Shown here piece by piece: positions 1,808 to 30,302 of a DNA stretch of 64,000 nucleotides. Positions within the stretch are counted from its first letter, which is position 1. The number at the start of each line of letters is the position of its first letter. The stretch spans positions 240,523-304,522 of the forward strand of contig CAYHBZ010000001.1 in NCBI GenBank assembly GCA_964355175.1. The letters run 5' to 3'. Source of the stretch: an uncultured Gammaproteobacteria bacterium. GTDB taxonomy: Bacteria > Patescibacteriota > Patescibacteriia > Magasanikbacterales > GWA2-37-8. Both the position numbers and the translations under genes were made by a program. The notes below the pieces were generated by a model. The model made no database searches. It worked only from the letters and a program-made list of their open reading frames with translations, and was not told the origin of the DNA.

Positions 1808-1819
1808 AGACTTGGGGTG

Positions 1820-3902: not shown

Positions 3903-3913
3903 ATTCTTAAAAA

Positions 3914-6091: not shown

Positions 6092-6106
6092 ACTTAAATA
6101 GCCTTT

Positions 6107-7210: not shown

Positions 7211-7211
7211 A

Positions 7212-8853: not shown

Positions 8854-8938
8854 AATATATGATTAAATAGTGATATAATTATACTGTCAGACCACTAATA
8901 TGTCAATAAATCCGGCTAATTACAGCGGAATTTTAAAT

Positions 8939-10654: not shown

Positions 10655-10799
10655 ATGATAAATTCTTATTTATTTTTTAACAAATTATTAACAAAATTTC
10701 CAAGATTTTATTATATCCATACCAAATCCTTTTTTGCATAATTCTACCATATATTTGATTTAATTTTCTATATACTTATAGAGAAAATTTAATAAACTA

Positions 10800-12713
10800 C
10801 TAATTGGCTAAATAATATACCACAAATACATTATTTTTATAAAGTATAGGAAACGGCAAAGAATGTAAGGCGTAGGTAACTATAAATTTTAACTGTGGTG
10901 TTTCTAATTTAATTTTCAAAAAATCTTTTTCTTTTAATTCTAGATACTTTTTGGTAAGTACCAAATTTGGATCACTACAATAAATGTTGTATTTCTTCCA
11001 AAAATCTTTTCCAAATAATAATTCTCCGCGATAGAGTATTCTTTGAGCCATATCTTTGTCATGTTGCAAAAGTCCCAGATCTTCATTTATGAAATAAACC
11101 GGTTTTTGAAAAACTCTACGAAAATCATTCATATGAGGAAGTACAACCCATAGTCCATCTTCGTTATTGTTTATCATAAATGCCTGCAATGAAGCCAATT
11201 CAGCATTTGTATTGAAGGGAACGGTTAACCCTCCTAAGAAATTCTGATATTGATTTCTCTCAAGAATAATATTCTTATTTAAAAATCTCATCAATTGCAG
11301 AGGGGGTATGCTTACATATGAGGAAATATCGGTATTTTGTGAATATGTTTTATCTAAATTGATAAAAACATCATAAGATAGATTTAGATTTTCAAAAGAA
11401 AATTTATTATTAACGCCACTAATAATGCTATAATCATTATTAGCGGCTTGACTCATTAAAATATTTTTTTTTATTATTATATGCCACACCGACAAAAAAA
11501 ATATGATTGTAAGAAAAATTCCAAAACGCTCCTCACATCTATTGGTTTTGAGGCTGTTTATAACAATTGCTAATTTTTTAAATTTATTATAAAAATAATC
11601 TTTCCTAACTTCCAAAAAAGTTAATAAATACCTGGATAAAAATACTAGAGATAAAAACAAAAAAAATCTTACCCAACCATAACTTCTTGGCAATTGAATA
11701 TTAATATAATTTTTCACTATAAAATTAGGCAGGATATTTGAATAAATTTCTATCAATGCGCCAAAAACTGGAAGCAGCAACAGAACAAAACTTGTTATCA
11801 AAAAAGGCAAAAAGTTGGTAGGATATGGCTTATAAGCTTTTTGTTTATAAGTAATTATAAATAATGATAAAGTAGTTAAGAAAAATAATCCGTAAACTAG
11901 ATAATGCACTGCTCTAAAAGAACGAACTACAGACCATTCAAATACCAGCTTATTGGCTACAAAAAAATATTCACTTGTGCTTAGGAAAATCGGTTTTAAA
12001 TCTCCCCACTCGGGTTTGAAATAAAGCAAAAATGCTATATTAAAAATGATGGTCAAAATAAAAAAGCCAAAAAACTTCCAGTTAATTTTTTTATTCAAAA
12101 CTAAATATATAAAATATGACAAAAATATAATATGAATATAAAAAGCATTTAGAGGATGGACAAAAGACTGAAAAATTACAATCAAAATGGCCGACCAATA
12201 CCTTTCGCTTAATACCAAAAATAGAAATAGAAGGTTTAAAAACGCACTAACAAGACGGTAATTTAATTCCAAGTTAGCACTATAATCCCATACAGAAAAT
12301 TCAATCCCCATCAAAATAACTACCGCGGTCGCTGCTAGTAATTTTATGTTAAAATTTTTAGAATATCTTCCTAAAAGGATATTGGCGATTTTAAAAGTAA
12401 ATAGGTAGTTAGCGGCCTGCAACAAAGAAACAAGAAATCTCTCAAAAAAAGGAACTTTTTGAATAAAAGGACTAATGAAAAAAAATATATTGAATCTAGA
12501 AACCATAAAACGATTTTTAATATCGCTTAAGCCTACCGAATCTGGATAGAATAATTTATCTACAAACGGCCACTTATAAATATGCAAGGCGAATAAAAAA
12601 TAAACCAAAAAAATAGATAAAAAAAATAATATATCAAAAATACGTTCCTTGCTTGGCGCAAAAACGGATAAAAAATATTTTAGATATTTATTTTTAATAA
12701 AATTTTGATTCAT
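10800..12713 (-). CDS. Polytopic membrane protein with a C-terminal soluble domain. Putative GT-C-type glycosyltransferase.
   Basis: Same architecture as the neighbour at 8939-10654. No specific motif recognised. Confidence 0.4.
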   Translation of the reverse strand: MNQNFIKNKYLKYFLSVFAPSKERIFDILFFLSIFLVYFLFALHIYKWPFVDKLFYPDSVGLSDIKNRFMVSRFNIFFFISPFIQKVPFFERFLVSLLQAANYLFTFKIANILLGRYSKNFNIKLLAATAVVILMGIEFSVWDYSANLELNYRLVSAFLNLLFLFLVLSERYWSAILIVIFQSFVHPLNAFYIHIIFLSYFIYLVLNKKINWKFFGFFILTIIFNIAFLLYFKPEWGDLKPIFLSTSEYFFVANKLVFEWSVVRSFRAVHYLVYGLFFLTTLSLFIITYKQKAYKPYPTNFLPFLITSFVLLLLPVFGALIEIYSNILPNFIVKNYINIQLPRSYGWVRFFLFLSLVFLSRYLLTFLEVRKDYFYNKFKKLAIVINSLKTNRCEERFGIFLTIIFFLSVWHIIIKKNILMSQAANNDYSIISGVNNKFSFENLNLSYDVFINLDKTYSQNTDISSYVSIPPLQLMRFLNKNIILERNQYQNFLGGLTVPFNTNAELASLQAFMINNNEDGLWVVLPHMNDFRRVFQKPVYFINEDLGLLQHDKDMAQRILYRGELLFGKDFWKKYNIYCSDPNLVLTKKYLELKEKDFLKIKLETPQLKFIVTYALHSLPFPILYKNNVFVVYYLAN

Positions 12714-12721
12714 GCTTTATA

Positions 12722-13759
12722 TTAAAAAAACATCTTAAAAAATGAAAGTGCGCCCTGTTTCCAAGGTACTCGATGAGATACGCCAGACTGACCTTTAAAT
12801 TTTTCTAAATTAGCCAAATACCAATCATAATTTCGCACCAATGCCTGCTTATTGGAAAATTTTGGTGCATACCCCAAGACTCTTTGGGCTTTTTCTATTG
12901 AAACAAAGCTGTCTTTTGAAGCGGTTTCATATACCCATTTATAAAGAGGAGACAGATGAAAAGCCTCAAGAAACCGCAACATCAGAATCATAGGCCAAGC
13001 AGGAAACCCAACTATTTTTTTATTAAAACCAGCCTTATCCAATACGGCCTGATAGTCTTCTTTCATGGTGGTAAATTCTTTGGCGCCAATATTAAAAGTA
13101 TCGTTGACTTTTTCTTTAGGCAAAGTAGCGCATAAGTAGATAGCGTCACAAAGATCTTCTACATCGAGCAGTTGATAACGGTTGTGACCACTTCCGATCA
13201 TTGGAAAATTTTTGCCGTCTTTGGCCCAATCATAAAATAAAGCAAATACGCCCAAACGTTCCGGTCCAATAAATGATTTAGGCCTGATAATTGGCACACA
13301 CATGCCCTGACGGGCCGATTCTAAACAGGCGATCTCAGCTAAAATTTTAGCCTGCCCATAAGGTCCTACCCCTTCTAGCTTATCATCTTCCGCGAGCGGA
13401 TGATGGTCAGGAATACCATAAACGGCCGTAGAAGAAACATGGATGACCCTGTCCACTTGGTGATTTTTGGCGCTAAGTAAAATATTTTTGGTGCCTTGAA
13501 CATCAGTAGAAAATATATCTTCTTCTTTATAAAGTGGCAAAGCCGCGGCGCAATGAATTACCACATCCACTCCGATCATTGCTTGGTCGACTTGTTCCAT
13601 ATTCCTAGTATCATATACAAGCGCTTCGATTTTATCTTTTTCAGGATAATCAAACGGCATAATATCAAGTGATCTTACCACGTGACCTTTACTCAATAAA
13701 TATCTAACTAAACTTATTCCTAAAAAGCCAGATCCACCTGTAATTAAATAACGAGACAT
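12722..13759 (-). CDS. NAD-dependent epimerase/dehydratase (extended SDR family)
   Basis: MSRYLITGGSGFLGISLVRYLL Rossmann motif ... YGQAK (YxxxK). Confidence 0.8.
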   Translation of the reverse strand: MSRYLITGGSGFLGISLVRYLLSKGHVVRSLDIMPFDYPEKDKIEALVYDTRNMEQVDQAMIGVDVVIHCAAALPLYKEEDIFSTDVQGTKNILLSAKNHQVDRVIHVSSTAVYGIPDHHPLAEDDKLEGVGPYGQAKILAEIACLESARQGMCVPIIRPKSFIGPERLGVFALFYDWAKDGKNFPMIGSGHNRYQLLDVEDLCDAIYLCATLPKEKVNDTFNIGAKEFTTMKEDYQAVLDKAGFNKKIVGFPAWPMILMLRFLEAFHLSPLYKWVYETASKDSFVSIEKAQRVLGYAPKFSNKQALVRNYDWYLANLEKFKGQSGVSHRVPWKQGALSFFKMFF

Positions 13760-13762
13760 AGA

Positions 13763-15064
13763 TTAAAAATAAAAAATACAAAACATAAATATTAACCAAG
13801 ATAACACACTTAAAAAAATAGTCTTGTCTTTATAAAATAATTTTTCAGGAAATTCTGCACCATGAGAAGTATGCACAATATTGAGATAGCGAAAGATGCC
13901 AATAATTACAAAAACGATGGAATAAACCGTAAGATCGGAAGTAACTCCCAAGATCGTATAGATCCCATATATCACTAAAGTCAACGAAGCGGCGATGGAT
14001 AATAGGTGGTCAAGAAGACTAAGGTTGTAACTTTTTAAAACCGTTCGAATATTAGAACCAGCTAACTCACTTCTTCTTTTACCCACCGTAATAAATAGCG
14101 CCACAAAAATTACCATTAGTATTAGCCAACGAGAAATAAAAGTGTCAGTGGCCAAACCACCAGCAACTACGCGCAAAAGATAACAGAGCGATACGCAAAT
14201 AAGATCAAAAATCGCTACATTTTTAATATAAAAAGAATAAACTAAATTTATAACCAGGTATAAAAATATAGGCAATATAATAGAAGCAGCAAACATATAT
14301 ACTACCCAAGCTCCCACCAAAAAAAGCACCGCGGCTATGCCTACCGCCTCTCTTAGAGAAACAGCGCCGCTGGCAATTGGTCGAACACATTTGAGCGGAT
14401 GACGAGCGTCTACTTCTCTATCCGCGATATCATTTACGACATAAACCAAGCTGGCAAAAAAACAGAAGGCTACAAAGGCTGCAAGCGCTTCTTCAAATTT
14501 TGATGAAAAAAATAATTCCTTGGCGAAAAAAATCGGTATAAATACGGCTAAATTCTTTATCCATTGTTGCGGCCTCATCAATAAAAGATAATTTCTAAAT
14601 TTACTAATAAATCCGATCATATATTTAAAAATATCGTCAATCAAATAAGTAATTTTGGTAAATACACTGTCGTTATCTGATTTTATTCTAGACACATAGA
14701 TAAAATCTGCTTCAATATTATAGGCAAACCGTGCATCAGTAAGATATTTATCCCCAATAACCAGGGAATCCAAATTTTGCTCATTTTTTACCAAATCTAA
14801 TATTTTTTTATTTGGTTTTCGGTAAGTGGTATCTAAAAAAATAGCGCCGCTTAGACTTTCAATTTTTAGATTTCTATTATTTTTATTTTTTTTATTTGAA
14901 CATAAATAAACTTTATTTTTGGTAACCAGCTCTTTGATTTTATTAATTAAATGAACTTCGACTTCATCGCGGCCATCGGAAGTAATAGTGCCGTCAATAT
15001 CCAAAAAAATAATTTTATTCTCAATCTTATTCGTATCTATATCCGCAAAAGAAGTTGGCTTCAT
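13763..15064 (-). CDS. Fusion of an N-terminal HAD-like phosphatase domain with a UbiA-family prenyltransferase (decaprenyl-phosphate phosphoribosyltransferase-like)
   Basis: IIFLDIDGTITSDG (HAD motif I DxDGT), then RPQQWIKNLAVF...YVVNDIADREVDARHP (UbiA NDxxDxxxD) and multiple TM helices. Confidence 0.65.
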   Translation of the reverse strand: MKPTSFADIDTNKIENKIIFLDIDGTITSDGRDEVEVHLINKIKELVTKNKVYLCSNKKNKNNRNLKIESLSGAIFLDTTYRKPNKKILDLVKNEQNLDSLVIGDKYLTDARFAYNIEADFIYVSRIKSDNDSVFTKITYLIDDIFKYMIGFISKFRNYLLLMRPQQWIKNLAVFIPIFFAKELFFSSKFEEALAAFVAFCFFASLVYVVNDIADREVDARHPLKCVRPIASGAVSLREAVGIAAVLFLVGAWVVYMFAASIILPIFLYLVINLVYSFYIKNVAIFDLICVSLCYLLRVVAGGLATDTFISRWLILMVIFVALFITVGKRRSELAGSNIRTVLKSYNLSLLDHLLSIAASLTLVIYGIYTILGVTSDLTVYSIVFVIIGIFRYLNIVHTSHGAEFPEKLFYKDKTIFLSVLSWLIFMFCIFYF

Positions 15065-15068
15065 AAAA

Positions 15069-15656
15069 TCATTTTTTAGCGACTATAAAAAAACTCAGGT
15101 AACCATCCGGCGAAGCATTCACTTCTTCAATAGTCATTTTTAATTCCGTGCTTAAAAAGGAAGTAATCACAGTTGGATCTGGCGCCCATAAATGTTGCTT
15201 ATTTATTCCCACGGCCCACATGGCGCAAACCGGATGCGGCAAGTAAAGACAAATATTTCCACCTATTTTAGTTACCCGATGCCATTCTCTAAGCGCCTCT
15301 TTCCAATCAGCCAGATGCTCCAAATTATGGGAAGAAAATACAAAATCCAAAGAGCTGTCTGCTTCTTTAATTTTATATGCGTTTTCATCTACATTATCCT
15401 CAATGGCTTTGGCGTTGTTAAAAGGCCATCTACCCGCCCCAACATCGACTCCCCTGCCTTGGCAATATTTCAAAGCTGACCACTTTACCGCTTCGGCCAT
15501 ATTACCTTTTTTTAAGTAATCAGGGTAAAACTTGCTGGCCTTGTAATAATCCAAACCACTAATTCTAGATCGAACATCTCCAAAGAAAAAGTAGTAAATA
15601 TCGTAAAAAAATGAAAGGATATAACTAATTAGATATTTAAAATATTTCATAGCCAC
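15069..15656 (-). CDS. Class I SAM-dependent methyltransferase (Methyltransf_11-like)
   Basis: GRGVDVGAGRWPF ... SSHNLEHLADW ... LKIGGNICLY. Confidence 0.55.
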   Translation of the reverse strand: MAMKYFKYLISYILSFFYDIYYFFFGDVRSRISGLDYYKASKFYPDYLKKGNMAEAVKWSALKYCQGRGVDVGAGRWPFNNAKAIEDNVDENAYKIKEADSSLDFVFSSHNLEHLADWKEALREWHRVTKIGGNICLYLPHPVCAMWAVGINKQHLWAPDPTVITSFLSTELKMTIEEVNASPDGYLSFFIVAKK

Positions 15657-16765
15657 TATTTAAGTAATAAATCTTGAATTGCCTTAACGACTTGCTCCAC
15701 AGTGATCCGGGAAATATATTTTTTCACCTCGCTTACCCTTACCGGACCCAAGCCGTTATAAAGGCACACAGGTGGAGGTGGATTCAGATAAACTGCTGAG
15801 AGTTTATTGGCTGAATTAGACAAAAATGGTAAACGTAATTTGGGATCTACCGTTATAAATATAGAAACTGATCTTGGAGCCAAAATATAAGCCAAATGAC
15901 TTGGGCCAGAATCCAAACCTAAATAAAATTTTGATCGCGCCAAGATATAAGCGGTTTGAGGCAAAGTGGTAATTCCAGATAGATTGACTACCCGATCACC
16001 AAATCTCTTTAGTAAGCTCATATAGGTATCGGCCAGATCTGTGTTTTCCTTACTACTATCACCAATAATTATCAATTTATCGACTAAATTTTTATCAAGC
16101 ACCAGACTAATTACTTCCACGAATTTTTCCACCGGCCATTGTCTGTCTGGCCATTTGGACAAAGCCCCCAAGACAAAATATTTATATCCACCCAATAGAT
16201 TATCAAATAAGTCCGGCTTGTCTTGTTTAATTTCTGGATAAATTAAATTATTTTCTTTAATAATTTTAGGATCTAATTCTCGTTTAGCAGCCTCTCCTAA
16301 CAGACCAACCAATTTGAGTGTTCTATGTAAATAATGTTCGCCGCGCAGATCGTATCCACATTTTTTTTGAAAAAAATTTGATTGGCTAATTGGCTTGACA
16401 AAATAACCAAACCAGTATCTCGATTTCAAAATATATTTAAGATGTTTTAAATTTAAAGTGGGAGAAATTACCAAGTCAAAATTTTCATCTTTCAACTTTT
16501 TATAATTTATAAATTCTATCCCTTCAAAATTCACTATTGGTGGCACCGTAGTTATTAGACTAATTTTTGCTTGTGGAAAAATATTTTTAATATATTGAAT
16601 GGCTGGAGATAACATAATCAGATCACCAATGCCAAGAGGTGGCAAAAAGAGGACACCAATATTACTAATTTCCCCCAATGTTTTTTTCTTAAATGAACAT
16701 AATTCCAAAAATATGAATAAAATATTCATCGCTAAAATTTTTATATACAATTTAATTTTATTCAT
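15656..16765 (-). CDS. Glycosyltransferase family 9 (heptosyltransferase). Start assigned to internal MNKIKLYI to avoid overlapping the upstream gene.
   Basis: VLFLPPLGIGDLIMLSPAIQYIKNIFPQAKISLITT (GT9 N-terminus) and C-terminal LSGITTLPQTAYILARSKFYLGLDSGPSHLA. Confidence 0.65.
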   Translation of the reverse strand: MNKIKLYIKILAMNILFIFLELCSFKKKTLGEISNIGVLFLPPLGIGDLIMLSPAIQYIKNIFPQAKISLITTVPPIVNFEGIEFINYKKLKDENFDLVISPTLNLKHLKYILKSRYWFGYFVKPISQSNFFQKKCGYDLRGEHYLHRTLKLVGLLGEAAKRELDPKIIKENNLIYPEIKQDKPDLFDNLLGGYKYFVLGALSKWPDRQWPVEKFVEVISLVLDKNLVDKLIIIGDSSKENTDLADTYMSLLKRFGDRVVNLSGITTLPQTAYILARSKFYLGLDSGPSHLAYILAPRSVSIFITVDPKLRLPFLSNSANKLSAVYLNPPPPVCLYNGLGPVRVSEVKKYISRITVEQVVKAIQDLLLK

Positions 16766-16772
16766 AACTAAA

Positions 16773-17822
16773 CTACGCATTTGAAATATATTTAGCAACA
16801 TCCAATAAATCATTTGCCATAAAATCTGCTTTTATTTCAAACTCTTTATCAGCACAAGCGTGGCCAGTTTTTACTCCAATGGTTTTACATCCCGCGGATT
16901 GACCAGCAAGAATATCCGAGGTTTTGTCGCCAACAATAAAACACTTACTAAAATCCAAATCCAACTCTTCTTTTCCTCTTTCCAATAAACCTGTTTTTGG
17001 CTTACGACAATTACAATTATCTCTTTTTGAATGTGGACAAAAATATATTTTATCAATTATGATTCCATTTTGATCACACTCTTTTAACATTACTCTATTA
17101 ACTTTATAAAAATCTTCTTTGGTGAAGTAACCTAGACCTATACCTGCTTGCGTTGTAATGACTATGATTTTATATCCTAAATCTTGCATTTTTTTCATTC
17201 CGGCTAAAGCATTTTTTTCAAAAACAAATTTTTCAGGTTCATGCAAATATTCGATTTCTTTGTTTATCACACCATCTCTATCCAAAAAAACGGCCTTTTG
17301 TTGAACGCGCTTATCTTCTTTAACACTAGTGTCGGTTACGCCAGTATATAATTTTAGAATTTTTTCGATCAACTTTGATGTAGAAATTCCATCTACAGCT
17401 GGCAATACAATTACTTCACCACCTTTATCTTTTATAATACCTGCGCTAGTCAATTGTTCTGGTGTATAATCTCCGGCTTTAAAGTAATAATCAGGCTGTA
17501 ATAGCTCCAAATTTTTTGCATTCCTTCTTTCTTCAAACAAAAAAACATAATCAATACTACTTAAAGCAGCCATAACTCTTAACCTGTCTTCTTCCCCCAC
17601 CAAAGGTCTTTTCTCTCCCTTATAAATTTTTACTGAGCTATCAGAGTTGATACCGGCCACTAAAACATCACACTGATTTTTTGCCTGCTCAAGAAAAGAA
17701 ACATGGCCGGCATGTAAAATATCAAAAACACCGCTGGTAAAACCTATTTTTTTACCGCCCTTTCTTTGTTCATCTAAAATTTTTACCAAATCTTCTCTAC
17801 TAACAATTTTACTTGCAATCAT
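16773..17822 (-). CDS. Bifunctional D-beta-D-heptose-1-phosphate adenylyltransferase (HldE domain II-like) fused to D,D-heptose-1,7-bisphosphate phosphatase (GmhB-like, HAD)
   Basis: FTSGVFDILHAGHVSFLEQAK (cytidylyltransferase HxGH). Then AVFLDRDGVIN ... CNCRKPKTGLL ... IVGDKTSDILAG (GmhB motifs). Confidence 0.75.
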   Translation of the reverse strand: MIASKIVSREDLVKILDEQRKGGKKIGFTSGVFDILHAGHVSFLEQAKNQCDVLVAGINSDSSVKIYKGEKRPLVGEEDRLRVMAALSSIDYVFLFEERRNAKNLELLQPDYYFKAGDYTPEQLTSAGIIKDKGGEVIVLPAVDGISTSKLIEKILKLYTGVTDTSVKEDKRVQQKAVFLDRDGVINKEIEYLHEPEKFVFEKNALAGMKKMQDLGYKIIVITTQAGIGLGYFTKEDFYKVNRVMLKECDQNGIIIDKIYFCPHSKRDNCNCRKPKTGLLERGKEELDLDFSKCFIVGDKTSDILAGQSAGCKTIGVKTGHACADKEFEIKADFMANDLLDVAKYISNA

Positions 17823-17837
17823 ATAAATACTGACTTT

Positions 17838-19142
17838 TTAATTTTCCATCTTTCTACTATCCTCCACACGATATGAATCAGATTCTTCATGATGGGTACT
17901 TATCTCCAAAATCTCAGAATCTTCCAAACCACCAAATCGATGTTTGACTCCCGGTAAAATTCTAATAAAATTACCGGCGGTCATTGTTAGTATTTCGGAG
18001 CCAGCTTCCACTCTTACTTTACCTTTTAATATTAAAAATGTCTCATCTTTATTTTTATGATAATGCAAACTACATTGATAACCCTTGTTTAAAACCAATA
18101 TTTTACTACAATATTTATCATTATTTTCTATCCATTTTTCATATCCCCATACTTTGGAATAAATATTGAGATCATCAATATGCATACCATCTCCACCAAG
18201 TAAAGTTCTAATTTCATCAATGGTCACAGTGGCGGTACCAATTTTTTGCACCACCAATTGCGCGCCGTAGTTAGCCAATTGGGCCGCTTCTACGAAGTTG
18301 GCTCCAGATAAAATTGCCAAAAAAGCCACCGCCACTACCGTATCACCTGCCCCAGAAACATCGCAAACCTTAACTTTATGGACCAACAGATGGTTTATAT
18401 TTTCCTGCTTATCTATCGCTAAAATACCATTACTACCCATAGTCAAAAGAATATTGGAATAGTTCATTTTTGATAATTTCAATCCAGCTTCCTGTGCCTC
18501 CTTGGCACCGGTTATTTCAAGAGCTTCTTTAAGATTGGGAGTGAGATAATCCACGCCCACAAAATTAGCACTATTTTGTGGTTTAATATCAGCGATAATA
18601 ATTTTATCTTTCTCTTTGATAGCTTTAATTATTTTAGAAGTAAAATCGGCGGAAAAAAGTCCTTTGGCATAATCCGACAATACTACACCATCACACCAAT
18701 CTATCTTTTCTAAAATTTTATTGAACAAAACAGACTCTTGTTCGGAATTAAAACCATCAACCACTTCTTCATCAGCCCGCAAAATCTGCTGATTGCCGGC
18801 TATATATCGGTGCTTAATGGTAGTAGTACGATTTTCAAGCATAATCACACAATCGTGATTTATTCCAAATTTTTCCAACATCCCTAATATTCTCTCCCCA
18901 CCCTCATCATCCCCCATAAAACCAGCCAGGCTTACTTGAGCTCCCAACGACAATAAATTATTTGAGACATTTGAAGCCCCACCTAAAATAAATTTATCCT
19001 CAGTATTGTTCAGAACTGGGACTGGCGCCTCCGGAGAAATTCTATTAACTTGGCCGTAAGTATACCAGTCCAACATAATATCACCGATGACCAAAACATT
19101 TTTTGTTTTAAATTTATCCACTATTTTAATTAGATTATTCAT
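17838..19142 (-). CDS. PfkB-family heptose-7-phosphate kinase (HldE domain I-like) fused to a C-terminal type-II PMI-like cupin domain
   Basis: VLVIGDIMLDWYTYGQVNRISPEAPVPV ... DVSGAGDT. C-terminal WGYEKWIENNDKYCSKILVLNKGYQCSLHYHKNKDETFLILKGKVRVEAG...ILPGVKHRF (cupin). Confidence 0.7.
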   Translation of the reverse strand: MNNLIKIVDKFKTKNVLVIGDIMLDWYTYGQVNRISPEAPVPVLNNTEDKFILGGASNVSNNLLSLGAQVSLAGFMGDDEGGERILGMLEKFGINHDCVIMLENRTTTIKHRYIAGNQQILRADEEVVDGFNSEQESVLFNKILEKIDWCDGVVLSDYAKGLFSADFTSKIIKAIKEKDKIIIADIKPQNSANFVGVDYLTPNLKEALEITGAKEAQEAGLKLSKMNYSNILLTMGSNGILAIDKQENINHLLVHKVKVCDVSGAGDTVVAVAFLAILSGANFVEAAQLANYGAQLVVQKIGTATVTIDEIRTLLGGDGMHIDDLNIYSKVWGYEKWIENNDKYCSKILVLNKGYQCSLHYHKNKDETFLILKGKVRVEAGSEILTMTAGNFIRILPGVKHRFGGLEDSEILEISTHHEESDSYRVEDSRKMEN

Positions 19143-19149
19143 ATCAACT

Positions 19150-21192
19150 TTATTTTTTCTTTATATTACTTACAGAGCTACTTGGTAAAATAAATTGATC
19201 AATAATTTGCTGACCCTGTTCATCAAAGATGACACCTCGGTCGTTGGCAAGCTTCAAAATATTTTTAGCCTTATCCAACTGATTATTAACTTTATAAAGA
19301 TAGGCCAAGCGCCAGTAACCCTCGCCAATTTTTGGATTATCCTCAATAGATTGTTCCAATAATCTGACCCCTTCTGTCATTTTATTTAATTGCATCTTAA
19401 CAGCGGCCAAACCATATATTATTTGTTGCCTTCTAGGCGATTTTCTCAAAGCATCTTCCAAAACACTTTCTGATTTAAAAACGTATGAACTATTATTATT
19501 TACAATCGCTCCTAGCTGATAAACTTGAGATAAAGTGAGTTGATTTCTGATATCCAGAGGATGCAACAATAAATTTTTCTCCAAATTTTGAATTACTAAA
19601 TCCAACAACTCGTTGGTTTTGTCTTTGCCGATCTTTTGCCAACCACTCGATAAAATTTGAATTATAGTGCGACTCATATCGCTTCTAATATCATCGACGT
19701 GCGGAGAAGAGAAGGCCAAAGCCTCACGAGCGGTCGGTATACCCACCACCGGGTCTTGAGATAAAGCCCGCACCGCGCTCAAAGTTTTATTATTGGCTCG
19801 AGCCGGTTGAATATTAAAAATAAAAATTATAATAAACAAACCCAAACCCATTGTAACCAATGTTCCTGGGCCAATATTTTTATCCGCTCTTATCGGAGCA
19901 TTGGCTGTAAACCCGTTTACCATGGCCGTCACTAAAGCCAACCAAAACATGAAATATAAATATGAAGTGGGATTTTCAAATACCGTAATGTTACTAACAA
20001 AATGAGCAACTAGAAAAGAGCCTCCAATTATCATAAAGTGATAATTTATCATATTTCTTTGCCAGGCTTTTACTAAGGCTAATATAGCCAACACAAACAT
20101 CCCTAAATAAGCCAGCAAGCCAACAAAACCTTGTACTGTTAAAGTATTGACCAAAATATTATGAGCGTTATCAAACCATGTTTCACCATATCCAAAGTTC
20201 AGAGACCTTGGATTATAATGAGCATTGAACGCATAAAAATAATTATTTGGACCCCACCCGAATATTGGCTTTTCCTTCCAACTTTGGATAGAAATTTCCC
20301 AAGCAATCCAACGCGGGCTGGCTTGAATTTCAGCCAAAGAAGTATTTACGGCGCGACCAATAGCCGGTAAATTAGTAACAAAATCACTATTTTTAAAAGT
20401 ATAAAGTAGAGAAACGCCAACCACACCCACAACTACTAGACCCACTAGCCCCCATCTAGCTTTGGGATTATTTTTTAAAACTATAATATAAAAAATACTA
20501 GCAAACACCGCGGCTGCGACCAAACCAAGCAAAGCGCCTCTGGTTCCACTCCAAAATATTCCCATAAAGCTAAAGAATACGCTTATGCCATAAAATATTT
20601 TCCATAAACTATTTTTCTCACGACTAAAGAGCAATATGGACAAAAAGGTCAAAAATAACCCGTATCCACCCACATAAATAGCATTTCCCAACGTACTAGC
20701 CACACGAATTGCCCCATTATTCAAAAGTAGATTTGGGTTCTCTGTCTGTAGCCAAGCGATAAACATGACCATACCCCCACCCAAAAGAAAGACTCTGCCA
20801 GCCCATTTCCAATCTTCCCAATCTTTCAAAACACTCGCCAAGATAATATAGTAAATAAAATAATGAATTAAAGTAAATAGCCCCAACATTCTTTCATGAT
20901 TATCCCAAAAACTATGATACACATCCACGCCAACAAAGGTGGAGACAGCAAAACTCAGAAGAAAAGCCGACAAACCAATAATTATATAATTAAGTTTTGG
21001 TTTGTATTGATCCCAATTGATATATAACAAAATCAAATAAGCAAATAACATTACTTCCACTATTGTTCTAAAAAAAATTATTTTCGGCACAATGAAGGGA
21101 AATATAAAAGAACTCGGAACAACCAATAATGGAAGAAAAAAGGTTGTGTAGATTAATAGCTTTAAAAAATTTTCCAATCTCGTTTTTAACAT
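19150..21192 (-). CDS. Wzy_C (O-antigen ligase/O-oligosaccharyltransferase-like) polytopic membrane protein with a C-terminal TPR domain
   Basis: SVFFSFMGIFWSGTRGALLGLVAAAVFASIFYII (Wzy_C core with SxTRG). C-terminal TPR-like LAYLYKVNNQLDKAKNILKLA. Confidence 0.6.
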   Translation of the reverse strand: MLKTRLENFLKLLIYTTFFLPLLVVPSSFIFPFIVPKIIFFRTIVEVMLFAYLILLYINWDQYKPKLNYIIIGLSAFLLSFAVSTFVGVDVYHSFWDNHERMLGLFTLIHYFIYYIILASVLKDWEDWKWAGRVFLLGGGMVMFIAWLQTENPNLLLNNGAIRVASTLGNAIYVGGYGLFLTFLSILLFSREKNSLWKIFYGISVFFSFMGIFWSGTRGALLGLVAAAVFASIFYIIVLKNNPKARWGLVGLVVVGVVGVSLLYTFKNSDFVTNLPAIGRAVNTSLAEIQASPRWIAWEISIQSWKEKPIFGWGPNNYFYAFNAHYNPRSLNFGYGETWFDNAHNILVNTLTVQGFVGLLAYLGMFVLAILALVKAWQRNMINYHFMIIGGSFLVAHFVSNITVFENPTSYLYFMFWLALVTAMVNGFTANAPIRADKNIGPGTLVTMGLGLFIIIFIFNIQPARANNKTLSAVRALSQDPVVGIPTAREALAFSSPHVDDIRSDMSRTIIQILSSGWQKIGKDKTNELLDLVIQNLEKNLLLHPLDIRNQLTLSQVYQLGAIVNNNSSYVFKSESVLEDALRKSPRRQQIIYGLAAVKMQLNKMTEGVRLLEQSIEDNPKIGEGYWRLAYLYKVNNQLDKAKNILKLANDRGVIFDEQGQQIIDQFILPSSSVSNIKKK

Positions 21193-21195
21193 ATA

Positions 21196-23409
21196 CTATC
21201 TATTAAATTTTAACTTAAAATTATTGGCTTCTTCTCTTCTGTTAGTTTTATTTAAATAATCAATATATTTATCTATCAAGTGTAAATTTTGCTTTTCGTC
21301 TTTATCCATTATAATCTTTACGATACTATCTTCTAGTAAATTAATACTACTATAAAGACTAAATAGATCAAAAACAGCGTCCAGCTCATCAGAGTTAAAT
21401 CGATAACCCAACTCTAAGGCTTTTTTAGCAGAATTAAAAGCGGATAAATTATCATTTTTATGACCGTAAATTATCGATTGCATCCAATAAGATGACGGAT
21501 AACTCGGGAAACGAATAATAAAATCAGCCGTAATTTTTAAAGCCTCGTCGTGCTTCCCTTGAAGCATTTTAACAGTGGCCAAACCAAATGTCAAAGCCGG
21601 TCTAGAGGGGCTGGTAGAAAGATAATATTTATAAATTTTTTCCGCTTCATTCAAGTAAACCGGATCTTTCCAAAATTTATATCCGTCTACATAAACCGTA
21701 CCCAAAAGCTTGCCCCCCCTGGTATCGGTTGGATAATCGGAAATAAATGATTGAATTGCTCCAACACCAAAATTATACATCTCTCTTGCTAAAGGACGGT
21801 GAGAGCTCACCACAAAATCCGGATGGGCGCTAATCCAGCTCAAAATAAACTGACCAAATTCAAAAGCAATATCGGGGCGATAAGGGTTTAAAATTTGTAC
21901 GGCTTTTCTATGAAACTCTACAGCTCCTTTGAAATCAACCATGGACTTTTTAACCGCCTGCGCTGCGTAATAATCAGCTTTAGCCGGCAGGTATACAAAT
22001 CTAAAAAGATACAGGCAGGACAAAAAAATTAAAACGCTTATAAATAAAAACTTTAACAACGGTCCAAAAAAAACTTTCAATGATCCTAAATATTTTTCAT
22101 GATTGTTCGCGCCAATATTATTTTTTGTTTTTAGATCAGTATTGCTCACATTATTGTTATATAGATCAATACCCGCCAATAACCAAAAGAAAACCAGGTA
22201 GGAGGAAAGATCTTCAAATACAAATAGATTTCTTATAAAGTGAGATAGCCAAAAGGCACCTAGGCCCAAAAATAGAAATCTTTCATTTTTATTCTTTTGT
22301 TTATAATTTTTAAAAATTAAATAAAAGGCATAAAAATAAATAAAAAGATACAAGCTAAGCCCGACTATTCCGGTAGTGGCCAATAAATTAAAAAAGACAC
22401 TGTGGGCATTGTCCTGCCAATCTTCAGTACGTCCGAAAAATTCGGGTAAATAGTTTTTGTTAAAAAGATCGTAGTAATTTTCCCAACCCCAACCCAGCAA
22501 AGGCTTTTGCTCCCAACCCACCACCGCGGTTTTCCACATCAACAAACGGCTGCCACCACTAGCCTCACTAAGCGGAGTGGTGACAAAGCGATTCAGGATC
22601 GGAATATTTTTTATGAAAGAAAAATTTCTAAAAGAAATCAATATAATCGGAGCTATTACCAACACAGAAAGTACAGACAAAAAAATCTTCCTTTGTCCTT
22701 GCCAATCCAAATCCTTTGCCAAAAAAATCAACAAAAATATTAGACCACCATAAAGACCAACCAAATCACCTCTGGTTTGAGAAGTAAAAATTGTTATCAA
22801 ACTGACTACCATCTCTATCAGCCACAAATATTTCAACTTGGTTTTGGTATTGTAATAAAAAATCAATGAAGAAAAAAATAAAAAACCGGCAAACCCAGCC
22901 AAAAAAATCGGGTTGCCTAGAGTAGAGCTCATACGAGCAGCCCCGGCATTAAGCAATAATCTGGAATTAAATACCTGCAACATCGCTATCAAAGGCGCAA
23001 CCATACCAATACCCACAAACCACTGCCACAACTTGTACCATTGCTCCTTGGAAAATACCGAACGCCAAACTAAAAATAATATGCCATAATGACACATTAT
23101 TACCAAACCGGTCATACGCTCGGTACGACTCCACAAACTACGATTAAAGTTTTCACTAAATATTGAAGCTATAAAAATAGCAACGTAAAACAATAATACG
23201 GAAAGGCTCAGCCAACTAAATCTTGGTTTCAAAAAACGCCAGTTGGAAAGCAGAGCAATTAGCCAAACAACCAAAATTAACAACGAAAATATCTGTAGTA
23301 AAAAGGCTTTGGGAGCGACAAATGGATATACTGAATTTTGCCAAACAATTATAGGCAATAAAAATAACCCCACGGTCAGATAGTATATTATGTTTTTTTC
23401 TCTTTGCAT
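21196..23409 (-). CDS. Paralog of the preceding gene: Wzy_C-like membrane protein with a C-terminal TPR domain
   Basis: ITIFTSQTRGDLVGLYGGLIFLLIF Wzy_C core. TPR-like C-terminus. Same length class as the neighbour. Confidence 0.6.
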   Translation of the reverse strand: MQREKNIIYYLTVGLFLLPIIVWQNSVYPFVAPKAFLLQIFSLLILVVWLIALLSNWRFLKPRFSWLSLSVLLFYVAIFIASIFSENFNRSLWSRTERMTGLVIMCHYGILFLVWRSVFSKEQWYKLWQWFVGIGMVAPLIAMLQVFNSRLLLNAGAARMSSTLGNPIFLAGFAGFLFFSSLIFYYNTKTKLKYLWLIEMVVSLITIFTSQTRGDLVGLYGGLIFLLIFLAKDLDWQGQRKIFLSVLSVLVIAPIILISFRNFSFIKNIPILNRFVTTPLSEASGGSRLLMWKTAVVGWEQKPLLGWGWENYYDLFNKNYLPEFFGRTEDWQDNAHSVFFNLLATTGIVGLSLYLFIYFYAFYLIFKNYKQKNKNERFLFLGLGAFWLSHFIRNLFVFEDLSSYLVFFWLLAGIDLYNNNVSNTDLKTKNNIGANNHEKYLGSLKVFFGPLLKFLFISVLIFLSCLYLFRFVYLPAKADYYAAQAVKKSMVDFKGAVEFHRKAVQILNPYRPDIAFEFGQFILSWISAHPDFVVSSHRPLAREMYNFGVGAIQSFISDYPTDTRGGKLLGTVYVDGYKFWKDPVYLNEAEKIYKYYLSTSPSRPALTFGLATVKMLQGKHDEALKITADFIIRFPSYPSSYWMQSIIYGHKNDNLSAFNSAKKALELGYRFNSDELDAVFDLFSLYSSINLLEDSIVKIIMDKDEKQNLHLIDKYIDYLNKTNRREEANNFKLKFNR

Positions 23410-23480
23410 AGCCTAAAATCCCTCTATAAATAGAATGATCTAAACCTAAATTACAATATAATTATACCTAAACTTACATA

Positions 23481-23513
23481 AAAAAACAACCCCTCCGTTT
23501 TGCAACGGAGGGG
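23481..23513 (-). terminator. Rho-independent terminator of the surface-protein gene
   Basis: 10-bp GC stem CCCCTCCGTT/AACGGAGGGG with a TTGC loop, followed on the minus strand by TTGTTTTTTT. Confidence 0.6.
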
Positions 23514-23551
23514 CATGTCTCTTTCAGAACTAGATCTGTTAAGCTAACAGA

Positions 23552-26500
23552 TTAGTACTGGTAAGTCTTGCCATAAACTGGAATTCCAGTAACTGGCGCA
23601 ACGTTCGTGTAAGCAGACGAACCGTCACCCCAACTAAAGGTAACCAATTGTGTGGTCAATTTCTCAACGCTAGCGGCAGTGTCGCTAAAGTCAGCATCAG
23701 TAGTATCAGCTACGAGATAAACCTGTTTAGCACCGGACCATTCATTTTGGGCGGTTAAAACAATGCTTACCTGATCACTGGTACTAGTAGCCATACTGGT
23801 AAGATACACGCTACCCATGAGATGGGCGCTATCAAATGTACTACCACTATAGGCATAGATAGTGACCGATCCGTTGCCGTTTCCGTCGCCAGCAATCAAG
23901 TTGCCGGTCAATTTCACAGCCAAGGTACCAAGAGTGGAGTTCTGGTTGCTTCCAGCTTCAGGAGAGGAAGTGAAGGTAAATACACCTACAGTATCCTGAG
24001 CCTTGGTGGAGTGTACAACAGAAGCTGTATCACCTTCAGCAACAGCAACGTTAGTCTTGCGAATAGTCTTAGCAGTTACACTGCTATCAACTAAAGCAAC
24101 GGAGTCAACTATACCGTACTGCTTGGAGTTGGAACCTTCACCCAACAAAATGAAATCGTTGGTCAAGTTAGCAGTAGTGCTAAATTGAGCAGATACTTTC
24201 TTGAAACCAATTTTTACAGCGTCGCCAGACACAGCACCATCATTGATAGTGTTGAATAAAGCGCTAACAGTAATTAGATTGCTCTGATCTTTGATCAAGT
24301 AAGCATCCAATTGACCATCGCTGAAAGTACATTCACCAGAGCTGTTCAAGAAACATTCCTTGTTAACAGTTTCGCCAGCTTTGTTCTTATAGGTTACAAT
24401 TGCTTTCTTAACATCTACATACTGGGCAGCAGTACCGAGAGCCAAAGCAGCACCGGTCAATGTGAAGCTTTCTTTGGTAGGAGTCAATTTATAAGTGGTC
24501 ATAGCTACTGGAGTAGCGGAACCAGAAATAACGACATCAGCCAAAGGAGTGGAACCATCCACAGCTACAGTCACAGAACCGCCAGTAGTTACAGTCAAGT
24601 AGATTGGAGAAGAGTCATTAATAACTGAAGTAGAATTCTCAGTTACACTCTTACCGTCGGCAAATGTCTCAACATCGATATCATCATCTGGATCAACATC
24701 TACATTAACATAACGAGTGGCAGTAAGACTGTCTTTGATTACCAACTGAGCTACCAATTTCTTGCTGTCACCAGCTTTCAATTTGTAATTCAAGCTAGAG
24801 AAAGTTACATAATAGTAACCACCACTACCAATCGTACCAGAAAGGTCAGAAAGGTTCTTAGTCATCAAAGGAGTAGTCGCGCCATCTTCCCACAAAGATA
24901 CAGTGTTTACTACAGCATTAGCAGCAGTATCACCAAGATCATTGCTAATAGCGGTGGTGGAAGCAAATACGCGCAATTTCAAACTAGTAATTTTGAGATC
25001 ATCGGAAGTGCCAGCAGTCAACAATAGACCTAAGGCATTCTGAGTAGATCCTTTTACTACAGAAGCTGAAGCTGGAGGAGTTGCGCGGGTTACGGTCAAC
25101 TGAGCTCCAGTAACAGTCATGCTGTTACCAGTCAAAGTGTTTGGAACGATCACAGAAGCGCTCACATATTGTGAGTTATCTACGTATTTTACGTAGTTAG
25201 AACCGCTGTAATCAACTTTGGAGACAACTTTCATGCTGGAAGGCATGCTGGTATCAATATCGGCAACCACGGCAAAGTGACGGGTCTTACCGGCAGCGAT
25301 GTCGTAAGAATCGGTAAACACCTTGTAATAGCTGTTAGCGGAAACTGTAGTACCAGTACCAAAGTCAGATTGAGGTCCAACCATAGTCTGATTGCTGTTG
25401 TCCAAATCTACGATTTTTACATTCTTTACAAATGCATAGTTAGTAGAAGTGCTCAAAGCGTTAGAAACAGAATCTGTCAAAAAGATAGATACTTTAGTGC
25501 TTTTTACAGTTACATTGTTGGAAGAGCTGAAAGAGAACTTCTGCAATATAACGTTGGTTACATTCTTACCAATATTAGTGGCGGCAGGACCATTGTTAGA
25601 CAAGGTCAAATCACCACCAGTAACAGTATAAGTCTGGTTACCAGTAGCAAAACTGTTGGTCAAGTTAACACCGGCATTATATTGAGTGTCTAGGATTCTT
25701 ACATCGCTAGTTTCGTCAACATAAAATGCCACGGTATCAGCTACGCGACCACCAGTGTTGTCAGCGTATACTACGAAAGTCTTAGTATCACCTTTAGTAA
25801 TAGTGTATGGAGTAGCCAAGGTGAAAACAACATGATCGCCAGTCATAGTTGCAGCCGAAGCTACATCAGAGCTGCCGAGAGTCAATTTCAAGTTAGCCAA
25901 GTAATCATTGGATAAAGTACCACCGTTGGTCAAAGTCATATTAACAACTTTAACATCGTTGGTAGCAGAGCTAGCACTAATAGTACCACGAGCCACTTCT
26001 ACTTTAGAAGCACCCAAGCCAAAAGAACCGGTAGAACCAGAGTTATCTACTGTAATAGCAGATACTGAGGAAGCACCAATGCTCATAATAGAACCAACTA
26101 CGCCAGATACAGTAGCATTGTTAGCACTGACAACTTCAAAACCATCGGCATCACCAGAAACAGCAAGAGTAGTATCTAAATCAGCTACTACGCGCAAAGT
26201 TTTTGGAGTGCTGGACAAAGCCACTTTCAAATTACTAAAAGTAACTACGTTAGTATCAGAAGCTACAGTGCGACCACTGGTCAAACGGTTGTTACCATCG
26301 TAAATATATACGCTGGCCAAGTCGTTATAAGCACCCAAACCGATACGGTGTAATTTCAAGTCATTCAATGTGCCGGAACCGGAAACATTGAAGTGCATGA
26401 AGTCAACGCCAGTAGCGTCTTGTGGTAATGGTGTGGCAGCTGGAGAATCAGAAGCCAAGGAAACAGTAACTGGACCAGAAGAAACTGGAGGAACTACAAC

Positions 26501-27268
26501 AGTTCCAGGAACAGCTTTAAATCCAAAAGTTACATCAACCAAAGCAGCTTCCATAGCAGTAACTTGAGTACCAGTGGAGTAACCAGTGGTAGAAGCCATA
26601 GCTACAGCAAATTTAGCTTGGAATTTGTTGGCAGTGAAACCAGTAGCAGTAACTTCGCGTAGGCTCTTGTTTGTAGCCACTACGTAAAATTTACCACCAT
26701 TGGAAACCAAAGCGCCTTCAGAAGGAGCAGCTTCAGTTACTTTCACAGTGCTCATGTTTTTAGCATGAAGTACCATGTCAGCGCTGGAAGCAGGAATTGT
26801 GCGGCCACCTTTTGCAGGTAAAGCAGCATAATTTGCACCATATAGACCAGTAGCGGCAGCAACAGACATTTCTGCCAATTTGCCGTCAGCCATAGTCACA
26901 TACAATTTTTCGGTTGAGCTATCTTTCAAAAGATAGGCGCCTGGGCGAGGAGCAACTACCCCAGCGGCTGGGAAAGAAGCCAAGCAGTCACCAGTAACAT
27001 ACTTGAAAGTATATTTGCTGTCGGCTGTCCAGGATTTAAAAATATCACCTTGTGGGAAATAAGATCTTGATTTGTCGGAGTTTACTACCCAGATATCGGC
27101 ACCGTTAGCTTTGACGAAATCGCCGGCAACAACGGTAGCGCAGTCAACCTGTGTAGCAGCTGTAGCAACAGCTGGTACCAAAGCAGCAACGCCCAAAGAC
27201 CAGAAAATGGTTGTAGAAGCAACACCTACAGTGAAGATCTTCTTACCCAATTTTAATAAATTGTTCAT
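23552..27268 (-). CDS. Secreted, Thr/Ser/Val/Ala/Gly-rich cell-surface protein (S-layer-like; 1239 aa from MNNLLKLGKK)
   Basis: N-terminal signal peptide KIFTVGVASTTIFWSLGVAALVPAVATAA. Low-complexity beta-rich composition. Elevated GC and codon bias relative to neighbours. Strong terminator. Sits beside the glycosylation genes. Confidence 0.55.
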   Translation of the reverse strand: MNNLLKLGKKIFTVGVASTTIFWSLGVAALVPAVATAATQVDCATVVAGDFVKANGADIWVVNSDKSRSYFPQGDIFKSWTADSKYTFKYVTGDCLASFPAAGVVAPRPGAYLLKDSSTEKLYVTMADGKLAEMSVAAATGLYGANYAALPAKGGRTIPASSADMVLHAKNMSTVKVTEAAPSEGALVSNGGKFYVVATNKSLREVTATGFTANKFQAKFAVAMASTTGYSTGTQVTAMEAALVDVTFGFKAVPGTVVVPPVSSGPVTVSLASDSPAATPLPQDATGVDFMHFNVSGSGTLNDLKLHRIGLGAYNDLASVYIYDGNNRLTSGRTVASDTNVVTFSNLKVALSSTPKTLRVVADLDTTLAVSGDADGFEVVSANNATVSGVVGSIMSIGASSVSAITVDNSGSTGSFGLGASKVEVARGTISASSATNDVKVVNMTLTNGGTLSNDYLANLKLTLGSSDVASAATMTGDHVVFTLATPYTITKGDTKTFVVYADNTGGRVADTVAFYVDETSDVRILDTQYNAGVNLTNSFATGNQTYTVTGGDLTLSNNGPAATNIGKNVTNVILQKFSFSSSNNVTVKSTKVSIFLTDSVSNALSTSTNYAFVKNVKIVDLDNSNQTMVGPQSDFGTGTTVSANSYYKVFTDSYDIAAGKTRHFAVVADIDTSMPSSMKVVSKVDYSGSNYVKYVDNSQYVSASVIVPNTLTGNSMTVTGAQLTVTRATPPASASVVKGSTQNALGLLLTAGTSDDLKITSLKLRVFASTTAISNDLGDTAANAVVNTVSLWEDGATTPLMTKNLSDLSGTIGSGGYYYVTFSSLNYKLKAGDSKKLVAQLVIKDSLTATRYVNVDVDPDDDIDVETFADGKSVTENSTSVINDSSPIYLTVTTGGSVTVAVDGSTPLADVVISGSATPVAMTTYKLTPTKESFTLTGAALALGTAAQYVDVKKAIVTYKNKAGETVNKECFLNSSGECTFSDGQLDAYLIKDQSNLITVSALFNTINDGAVSGDAVKIGFKKVSAQFSTTANLTNDFILLGEGSNSKQYGIVDSVALVDSSVTAKTIRKTNVAVAEGDTASVVHSTKAQDTVGVFTFTSSPEAGSNQNSTLGTLAVKLTGNLIAGDGNGNGSVTIYAYSGSTFDSAHLMGSVYLTSMATSTSDQVSIVLTAQNEWSGAKQVYLVADTTDADFSDTAASVEKLTTQLVTFSWGDGSSAYTNVAPVTGIPVYGKTYQY

Positions 27269-29769: not shown

Positions 29770-29818
29770 TTGACAGAACCTTAAAAATAAGGTAGTTTGT
29801 ATACACTAGTCTATACAA
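29770..29818 (+). promoter_or_regulatory. Putative sigma70 promoter (TTGACA-17-TAGTTT) overlapped by near-palindrome copy 2 (29795-29818)
   Basis: TTGACA at 29770-29775. The palindrome spans the -10 and TSS region of the downstream HTH gene. Confidence 0.35.
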
Positions 29819-29823
29819 ATTTT

Positions 29824-30249: not shown

Positions 30250-30266
30250 CAGTCGGGTTTTTTATT
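30238..30266 (+). terminator. Rho-independent terminator (AAACCCGA-TTAACAG-TCGGGTTT + T-run)
   Basis: Stem-loop contains the stop codon, followed by TTTTTTATTT. Confidence 0.55.
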
Positions 30267-30302
30267 TGACCATAACACTAATAATGGAGTAAAATAACTG
30301 AT

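Follow-up and report, generated by a model that had tools for sequence, protein, structure and literature searches.

Two adjacent genes, here called A and B, lie in a 64,000-nucleotide stretch of contig CAYHBZ010000001.1 (assembly GCA_964355175.1; the whole stretch is referred to below as the window) from a member of Candidatus Magasanikbacteria, within the Candidate Phyla Radiation (CPR; Patescibacteria). Each encodes a large membrane protein in which a Wzy_C core is followed by a tetratricopeptide repeat (TPR) or TPR-like tail, and the pair is flanked on one side by sugar genes and on the other by S, a gene for a large secreted protein. A and B are not equivalent: B is tied to the type of S, whereas A is tied to the sugar island. 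The favoured reading, to which a probability of about 0.45 is given, is that both are O-oligosaccharyltransferases (O-OTases), B linked to a particular substrate and A general, and that they probably glycosylate a surface protein.

Domain architecture, fold and catalytic residues of A and B

The features on which the analysis centres are as follows.

Gene A: 19150..21192, minus strand, 680-aa Wzy_C (WaaL-fold) membrane enzyme with a C-terminal TPR domain ('A-type', class-wide)
Extracytoplasmic catalytic loop of A: 20158..20394, minus strand, aa 267-345, with R294, W298, P309-x2-G312-x-G314, D341 and H344
Exit of the 13th transmembrane helix and TPR tail of A: 19153..19806, minus strand, aa 463-680, predicted to lie outside the cell
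Gene B: 21196..23409, minus strand, 737-aa protein with a Wzy_C core and a degenerate TPR tail ('B-type')
C-terminal tail of B, TPR-like: 21199..21999, minus strand, aa 471-737
Gene S: 23552..27268, minus strand, 1238-aa secreted protein, candidate acceptor, S-layer-like

A preliminary description of this DNA had proposed A and B as tandem Wzy_C-TPR paralogues situated between sugar genes and a Thr/Ser-rich secreted protein. This arrangement is correct in every detail that could be checked; the length of S is 1238 aa counted from the ATG at 27268, where 1239 had been given. The open reading frames of A and B have the lengths and positions described, begin with ATG and are separated by 3 nt. 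Pfam places a Wzy_C domain at residues ~200-360 of both proteins, as had been claimed, with scores of 75.6 bits for A and 76.7 bits for B against a gathering cutoff of 31.7, and matches the same domain in 38/38 aligned relatives. Paralogy is evident from an alignment of A and B from end to end (30% identity, E 2e-85), in which the tail is the least conserved region (24% identity).

The C-terminal TPR repeats noted previously are recognized in A, where TPR_19 scores 26.3 bits and barely exceeds the Pfam cutoff of 25. The tail of B falls under this cutoff (19.8 bits) but is homologous to that of A, with which it can be aligned; its best match among solved structures is the TPR domain of SPINDLY (E 0.002), and B-type homologues score on many TPR families. 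The family profile matches solved TPR proteins strongly, for example the TPR domain of OGT at E 4e-28. Two sets of conserved positions in the tail, S585-P586-R/K588 and P545-x-D-x-R, were considered as a ligand site and rejected. Profile alignment shows them to be the canonical TPR turn 'al.l.P.', so they are uninformative on the ligand.

An AlphaFold2 (AF2) model of A, built with a 38-sequence alignment, has a mean predicted local distance difference test (pLDDT) score of 91.6 and a predicted template modelling (pTM) score of 0.90. The best fold match identified by Foldseek is WaaL (7tpg_B; E 5e-9, TM-score 0.67 normalised to WaaL), which is the sole membrane protein among PDB fold matches at E≤0.001, and the family profile also matches the WaaL sequence (E 1.7e-12). 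Helices were taken from the AF2 secondary structure; prediction from hydropathy only undercounted them. In the model, nine transmembrane helices are followed by a loop (residues 266-345), three transmembrane helices as in WaaL, an extra helix (442-479) and the TPR helices. The predicted structure of A therefore has the WaaL-like 12-helix fold, with its large external loop between helices 9 and 10. The tail of the model superposes on the TPR domains of OGT, SPY and MamA.

In the WaaL structure, the loop reportedly faces the periplasm and the C-terminus the cytoplasm. By helix parity with WaaL, the 13th helix of A should turn the TPR domain to the outside of the cell, beside the catalytic loop. 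The model thus places the tail on the outer face, the location that the preliminary description had put forward as a check on its proposal.

Residues R218 (located just before the catalytic loop), R294, W298, G312, G314, N317, W339, D341 and H344 are invariant in the 38-sequence alignment. N317 and W339 vary in several divergent second copies, which are described below; the remaining invariant columns are kept in 23/23 A-type, B-type and divergent second copies, and P309-x2-G-x-G is present in all copies examined. Conservation within the protein is highest in the external loop, with a mean identity of 66% among 69 A-type orthologues. Functionally important residues have been reported at R215, R288 and H338 of Escherichia coli WaaL and at R224, R298 and H349 of PglL (PMC3643930, Schulz et al.). 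R218, R294 and H344 of A correspond to these by their position in the Wzy_C domain, the correspondence with PglL being one of position and not of direct alignment. In addition, the spacing of P309-x2-G312-x-G314 is that of P313/G316/G318 of PglL, as given in PMC3643930.

Distribution of the family and conservation of gene order

Homologues of A, B and S are encoded in metagenome-assembled genomes (MAGs) of Candidatus Magasanikbacteria and other Patescibacteria. A has at least 803 relatives at E≤1e-5. The best 120 listed are proteins of ~680-700 aa with 51-73% identity over the best local alignment, and the named ones among them are all from Patescibacteria-type MAGs, except for one labelled Candidatus Udaeobacter. 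Across the class, A-type proteins retain 45-73% identity. B-type proteins form only about 18 close homologue clusters (39-68% identity); copies of B and S that are 100% identical are present on a 953,736-bp contig. A one-genome-per-species collection has 444 stretches that encode relatives. Searching a library of representatives at 50% identity with the family profile gave 10,201 proteins at E≤1e-30, of which the top 150 are nearly all full-length matches (650-830 aa). The number of profile matches indicates that the Wzy_C-TPR architecture is common, not rare.

A recurrent module is found in relatives, consisting of an extracytoplasmic function (ECF) sigma factor, a DUF5667 protein, S, one or two Wzy_C-TPR genes and then sugar genes. 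The region upstream of A-type genes was surveyed in the 80 best loci from different species, 65 of which had enough upstream sequence to judge. An S-family protein is encoded upstream on the same strand in 36/65 of these loci, and a different secreted protein of at least 850 aa occupies the S position in at least 5/65. The order of S followed by Wzy_C-TPR persists from Magasanikbacteria to more distant Patescibacteria, including loci with non-homologous secreted proteins.

B-type genes have a narrower association. They lie directly after S in 8/8 loci with an S that is ≥57% identical (the window and loci L005, L006, L059, L065, L087, L088 and L089), and in 0/31 loci in which S is ≤37% identical. 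In 10-12 of these 31 loci with another S, the same slot holds a more divergent second copy (22-28% identical), and many loci carry the A-type gene alone, with no second copy. Only the presence or absence of the B-type gene tracks the type of S. A quantitative relationship between divergence of B and divergence of S was rejected, since an S of 80% identity can accompany a B of 45%, and an S of 69% a B of 68%.

In loci inspected gene by gene, the A-type gene is followed by sugar genes, which were compared between loci over about 8 kb downstream. The sets differ completely among loci that have S, B and A in common. The heptose/GT9/UbiA set of the window recurs only in L018 and, in part, in L049; both have a non-homologous large protein in the S position, lack a B-type gene and encode an A-type protein that is 51-54% identical. 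In L006, S and the B-type gene are present with no sugar genes after them. Serotype-specific Wzy polymerases, unlike the A-type proteins, are not conserved across sugar sets. Co-variation with the sugar set, as expected of such a polymerase, is not seen here: the A-type proteins keep 45-73% identity and the B-type proteins 39-68% despite different sugars. That neither paralogue follows sugar-gene content argues against repeat-unit-specific Wzy polymerases, and so against the case of plain Wzy polymerases that the preliminary description had itself set against its proposal.

In close relatives, the sigma factor and DUF5667 protein are 86-98% identical, as against 37-73% for S, 43% for B and 58-62% for A. 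The ECF sigma factor reaches 98% and the DUF5667 protein 91%, compared with 73% for S. This indicates that the surface genes are the fast-changing or exchanged part of the locus.

As a further observation on the S position, a non-homologous secreted protein of 900-1300 aa is encoded there in L003, L014, L016, L018, L049, L052, L072 and L074. One of the proteins that replace S carries a Lamin-tail domain. The replacing proteins are preceded by a protein of 150-175 aa with an N-terminal hydrophobic segment, which is possibly pilin-like.

The secreted protein S and its possible control module

Three further features adjoin S upstream or lie between S and B, one of them accompanied by a TATAAT hexamer.

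Intrinsic-terminator-like hairpin: 23489..23514, minus strand, 11 bp of which 7 are GC, followed by a T-run; 38 nt past the S stop codon
TATAAT hexamer: 23461-23466, minus strand, between the hairpin and B
DUF5667 protein: 27490-28809, minus strand, Pfam match, conserved upstream partner of S
ECF-type sigma factor: 28818-29378, minus strand, Pfam match, conserved upstream partner of S

The S protein is acidic and rich in Thr, Ser, Val and Ala (T 12.2%, S 11.1%, Cys 0.3%), and its N-terminus resembles a signal peptide. The AF2 model (pLDDT 86.8) comprises an alpha/beta N-terminal domain of ~210 aa, a disordered Pro/Ser/Val linker and ~9 Ig-like beta-sandwich domains, and its fold matches are generic Ig-domain arrays, including the Haloferax volcanii S-layer protein (7ptp). 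The beta-sandwich modules are internally repeated. Runs of S/T/A/P/G residues are limited to one short stretch ('ATPPASAS' at 729) in addition to the Pro/Ser/Val linker near residues 252-264. There was no match to S in Pfam or NCBIfam and no informative one among PDB sequences, and no homology to known S-layer families. Its 61 homologues of similar length (about 1150-1340 aa) are all unnamed. The family has a conserved N-terminal region of ~620 aa, followed by ~500 hypervariable C-terminal residues that can be aligned only among the closest relatives. Surface proteins subject to diversifying selection or cassette exchange typically show such a pattern. The features of S are compatible with an S-layer protein or another major surface protein, from which we infer the label 'S-layer-like'.

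The hairpin and T-run downstream of S suggest that S may form its own transcription unit, with B, A and the sugar genes in a separate one. Such a signal would fit S as a separately and highly expressed gene. Upstream, the ECF sigma factor and DUF5667 pair consistently precedes S (in L001, L005, L006, L087, L089 and many GTDB loci), and the two may act as sigma and anti-sigma factor in control of the surface protein.

Proposed function and relationship to known systems

As O-OTases, A and B would act on the outer face of the membrane as transferases of the WaaL/PglL fold, taking a finished glycan from a polyprenyl-pyrophosphate carrier and transferring it en bloc to a hydroxyl acceptor. Of the conserved residues, Arg218 and Arg294 would hold the pyrophosphate, with His344 in the external loop. 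The 13th helix would put the TPR domain near this loop, where it would most likely hold the acceptor polypeptide. B would pair with the adjacent S, in the manner of TfpO or TfpW, whose genes lie beside pilA. A would be a class-wide, glycan-tolerant general transferase comparable to PglL, heading any sugar cluster of the genome.

The combination of Wzy_C and TPR in an S-layer O-OTase is not new, having been published for WsfB of the Firmicutes over a decade ago (PMC2943079). WsfB of Paenibacillus alvei has Wzy_C with a C-terminal TPR motif, is encoded in an S-layer glycan cluster and was proposed as the oligosaccharyl:S-layer-protein transferase; PglL was also described as combining Wzy_C with TPR (PMC2943079). 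WsfB, and WsaB/WsaA of Geobacillus stearothermophilus, which are likewise predicted S-layer-protein transferases, resemble A and B in this architecture, in belonging to an S-layer glycosylation cluster (a putative one in the case of A and B) and in coming from a bacterium that lacks an outer membrane. However, the CPR proteins are a large family of their own, whose likeness to WsfB is one of described architecture and not of sequence comparison, and here there are two paralogues with different linkage behaviour. In addition, S is unrelated to SpaA or SgsE, and is only a candidate S-layer protein.

Similarity to the Gram-negative O-OTases PglL, PglS, TfpO and TfpM extends to the WaaL-like fold, the Wzy_C loop, the Arg/Arg/His residues and, for PglL, the P-x2-G-x-G spacing. 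The two groups differ in that A and B have a much larger TPR domain, of about 220 aa and 5-6 repeats, placed after the 13th helix, and in that the candidate target is a 1238-aa Ig-repeat protein and not a pilin. A and B also lack the PglL_A and Wzy_C_2 domains of PglL and PglS. In Acinetobacter the gene order is pilA-tfpO-pglL. A title cited in PMC12645811 refers to one pilin-specific and one general OTase in this genus, a division that the S-linked B and the more general A resemble. O-OTase genes commonly adjoin those of their targets (PMC3643930; PMC12645811), and a single organism can hold both a target-specific and a general enzyme (PMC12645811). In the present loci a candidate target gene adjoins the B-type gene in 8/8 cases and lies upstream of the A-type gene in 36/65, a feature that is supportive and not class-defining.

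WaaL of Cupriavidus metallidurans (7TPG) is the best structural match of A, and has its catalytic loop between the same helices. It differs in having 12 helices and no TPR, and its lipid A-core acceptor is not expected from a CPR bacterium.

A TPR domain fused to a protein-modifying glycosyltransferase is also a feature of OGT, SPY and TMTC and, reportedly, of FlmG. The membrane glycosyltransferase TfpW of Pseudomonas aeruginosa Pa5196 carries a TPR domain on its periplasmic side, and its gene lies right after pilA (bioRxiv 10.1101/2020.04.19.049825). A and B resemble TfpW, TMTC1-4, OGT and SPY as glycosyltransferases fused to a TPR domain that faces, or in A and B would face, the acceptor. 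TfpW also depends on a decaprenyl-phosphate-pentose pathway like that encoded at 12722-15064 of the window. In contrast to A and B, which have the WaaL fold and would use pyrophosphate-linked glycans, TfpW and the TMTCs are of the GT-C fold and use polyprenyl-monophosphate sugars.

Evidence against an O-OTase function and alternative explanations

A number of points weigh against A and B being O-OTases that act on a surface protein. TPR domains double as polysaccharide-export scaffolds, and we know of no direct evidence of protein glycosylation from any CPR bacterium. PglL_A (PF15864) and Wzy_C_2 were matched in neither A nor B at E≤0.1 or E≤1, and are not among the 25 families most often matched by 38 family members. 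The assignment to the PglL-type O-OTase fold family made in the preliminary description is upheld as regards Wzy_C and the Arg/Arg/His triad, but not as regards these two domains. Their absence does not exclude O-OTase activity, because TfpO and TfpM also lack both (PMC12645811). Among NCBIfam models the nearest, which score far under their cutoffs, are IctB, TuaE and an exosortase-linked ligase. WaaL, O-OTases and some polymerases are not separable by sequence alone (PMC3643930). As regards the acceptor, S has no obvious glycosylation motif: the Bacteroidetes O-glycosylation motif D(S/T)(A/I/L/V/M/T) is not enriched, occurring 11 times compared with 8.8 +/- 2.7 in shuffled sequences. A strong terminator lies between S and B, so that the two genes need not be co-transcribed. 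Upstream genes are unrelated in about 24/65 A-type loci, which almost always have sugar genes downstream, and a general glycan-processing role fits such S-less loci at least as well.

These last loci also bear on the earlier suggestion of a system dedicated to O-glycosylation of the surface protein. Adjacency to S and the tie between B-type and S-type speak for it; the occurrence of A-type genes without S in about a third of loci, and the non-equivalence of the paralogues, do not. With one paralogue apparently linked to a substrate and the other general, a tandem pair of O-OTases serving a single dedicated system would be an oversimplified picture.

TacL in pneumococci and WaaL in Gram-negatives transfer to non-protein acceptors, and A and/or B could likewise be ligases that move a lipid-linked glycan to a glycolipid anchor or other envelope polymer. 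The product would be a lipoglycan or a lipoteichoic-acid-like molecule, which might anchor S; S-layer genes adjoining those for anchoring polymers are known in Firmicutes. WaaL shares the fold and catalytic triad and typically tolerates different glycans too, as the lack of co-variation with sugar genes indicates here, and A-type genes almost always head sugar clusters but do not always have a surface-protein gene nearby. This explanation is nonetheless considered rather unlikely. TPR is a typical peptide-recognition module that the known WaaL and TacL proteins do not have, B-type genes track the type of S and nothing else, and no lipid A/core genes were seen within the window. Somewhat less probable again is a pair of the Wzx/Wzy type, in which one paralogue, most likely the variable gene of the B slot, is a Wzy polymerase and the other attaches the polymer or passes it on, for instance to an LCP enzyme that links it to the wall. 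The Wzy_C family of Pfam spans polymerases and ligases, both of which the Wzx/Wzy pathway requires. Wzx flippases are present in clusters of relatives, TuaE is a weak NCBIfam match for A, and the identity of 22-28% for the gene in the S-adjacent slot of 10-12 loci is the usual pattern of Wzy polymerases. However, a repeat-unit-specific polymerase should follow the sugar genes, and the B-type protein is kept at 39-68% identity alongside entirely different sugar genes, or in L006 none. Many loci have only an A-type gene, and the His of WaaL and PglL is kept in all copies.

It is also conceivable, but improbable, that adjacency to S has no meaning, and that A and B serve a general exopolysaccharide and merely share a hypervariable, recombination-prone surface locus with S. 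The low-GC island extends to about position 23,500, and the contrast between the sigma factor and DUF5667 protein (86-98%) and S (37-73%), B (43%) and A (58-62%) is consistent with cassette exchange. Co-location by chance is difficult to reconcile with the persistence of the order S-then-Wzy_C-TPR into distant Patescibacteria, even with non-homologous secreted proteins, and the association of B-type with S-type in 8/8 versus 0/31 loci is hard to explain in this way.

The sugar gene island and other regions of the window

Sugar gene island: 830..19142, minus strand, low GC (28-36%), downstream of A

The island encodes a fusion of HldE kinase and cupin, a fusion of HldE adenylyltransferase and GmhB, a GT9 glycosyltransferase, methyltransferases, GT4 glycosyltransferases, a HAD+UbiA phosphoribosyltransferase-like protein, an epimerase and two GT-C-like membrane proteins. 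A trio of GFO, hexapeptide and DegT genes is WbpB/D/E-like. GC content steps from 28-38% over positions 1-24000 of the window, which include A and B, to 40-49% over 24000-64000. Low-GC glycan islands usually indicate horizontal exchange. No flippase, initiating phosphoglycosyltransferase or further polymerase was found within 830-19142. The sugar cluster continues past the left edge of the window, where there is a second, partial GT9 gene (1-~700, minus strand).

A complete-looking ADP-heptose route is encoded at 16773-19142 and 15656-16813 (minus strand), in a bacterium expected to be without lipopolysaccharide. The cupin fused C-terminally to the HldE kinase domain may replace the missing GmhA isomerase. 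GT9-like enzymes include protein O-heptosyltransferases, and the heptose could go onto protein or glycan.

The region 8939-15064 (minus strand) encodes the UbiA fusion, then an NAD epimerase/reductase and membrane proteins of 637 and 571 aa. The HAD-phosphatase/UbiA fusion is similar to decaprenyl-phosphate phosphoribosyltransferase (203 bits, just below the cutoff of 234). There were no Pfam, NCBIfam or PDB sequence matches to the 637-aa protein, and only weak matches to PMT_2 and DUF6798 for the 571-aa protein. The region resembles a polyprenyl-phosphate-pentose pathway of the kind found in mycobacteria or in pilin arabinosylation of P. aeruginosa Pa5196, with external transferases of the GT-C type. 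The 571-aa PMT-like protein is an alternative candidate for a protein glycosyltransferase.

Elsewhere in the window, divergent from the sigma factor gene (29797-33190, plus strand), there are genes for an HTH_17 protein, a 580-aa DUF11/CLIPPER-like protein and a 380-aa protein without matches. The DUF11/CLIPPER-like gene is syntenic in relatives, with 51-70% identity. At 53477-63957 (minus strand), the gene for a 2703-aa protein containing Big_5 and Laminin_G_3/ConA-like domains precedes those for two small bacterial thrombospondin type 3 repeat proteins and a 366-aa protein without matches, forming another large surface or adhesion module.

Implications for the CPR cell surface

The surface is central to the biology of CPR bacteria, uncultured organisms with tiny genomes that live attached to other cells. 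To our knowledge, almost nothing is known of its molecular make-up. A literature search for Wzy_C or O-antigen ligase with TPR in CPR/Patescibacteria found nothing specific, and the CPR Wzy_C-TPR family is a large, distinct branch that is undescribed as far as the searched literature shows. Useful leads are the split between S-linked and general transferases and a candidate family of surface proteins.

In a more elaborate form of the favoured reading, which is doubtful as a whole, Magasanikbacteria and related CPR bacteria would have a two-tier system of surface-protein O-glycosylation based on WaaL-fold enzymes whose TPR domain is external, with a class-wide general A-type transferase and an S-reading cassette transferase in the B slot. 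The A-type enzyme would accept any glycan of the variable island. Exchange of the B-slot transferase would go hand in hand with that of the hypervariable outer half of the ~1240-aa Ig-repeat protein, which the transferase would read through its TPR domain. If true, the S-layer protein family long sought in these ultra-small cells would thereby be identified, and with it the ECF-sigma/DUF5667 module that controls it.

If A and B are instead ligases acting on lipid or wall polymers, the locus would be an ordinary envelope polysaccharide cluster. If they glycosylate the adjacent protein, the locus would point to a candidate family of S-layer proteins, and a large part of a genome of ~1 Mb would be spent on variable surface glycans. 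A and B would then be new O-oligosaccharyltransferases in which the acceptor-binding domain is built in and the specificity for the glycan apparently relaxed, and such enzymes may be of use in glycoconjugate engineering.

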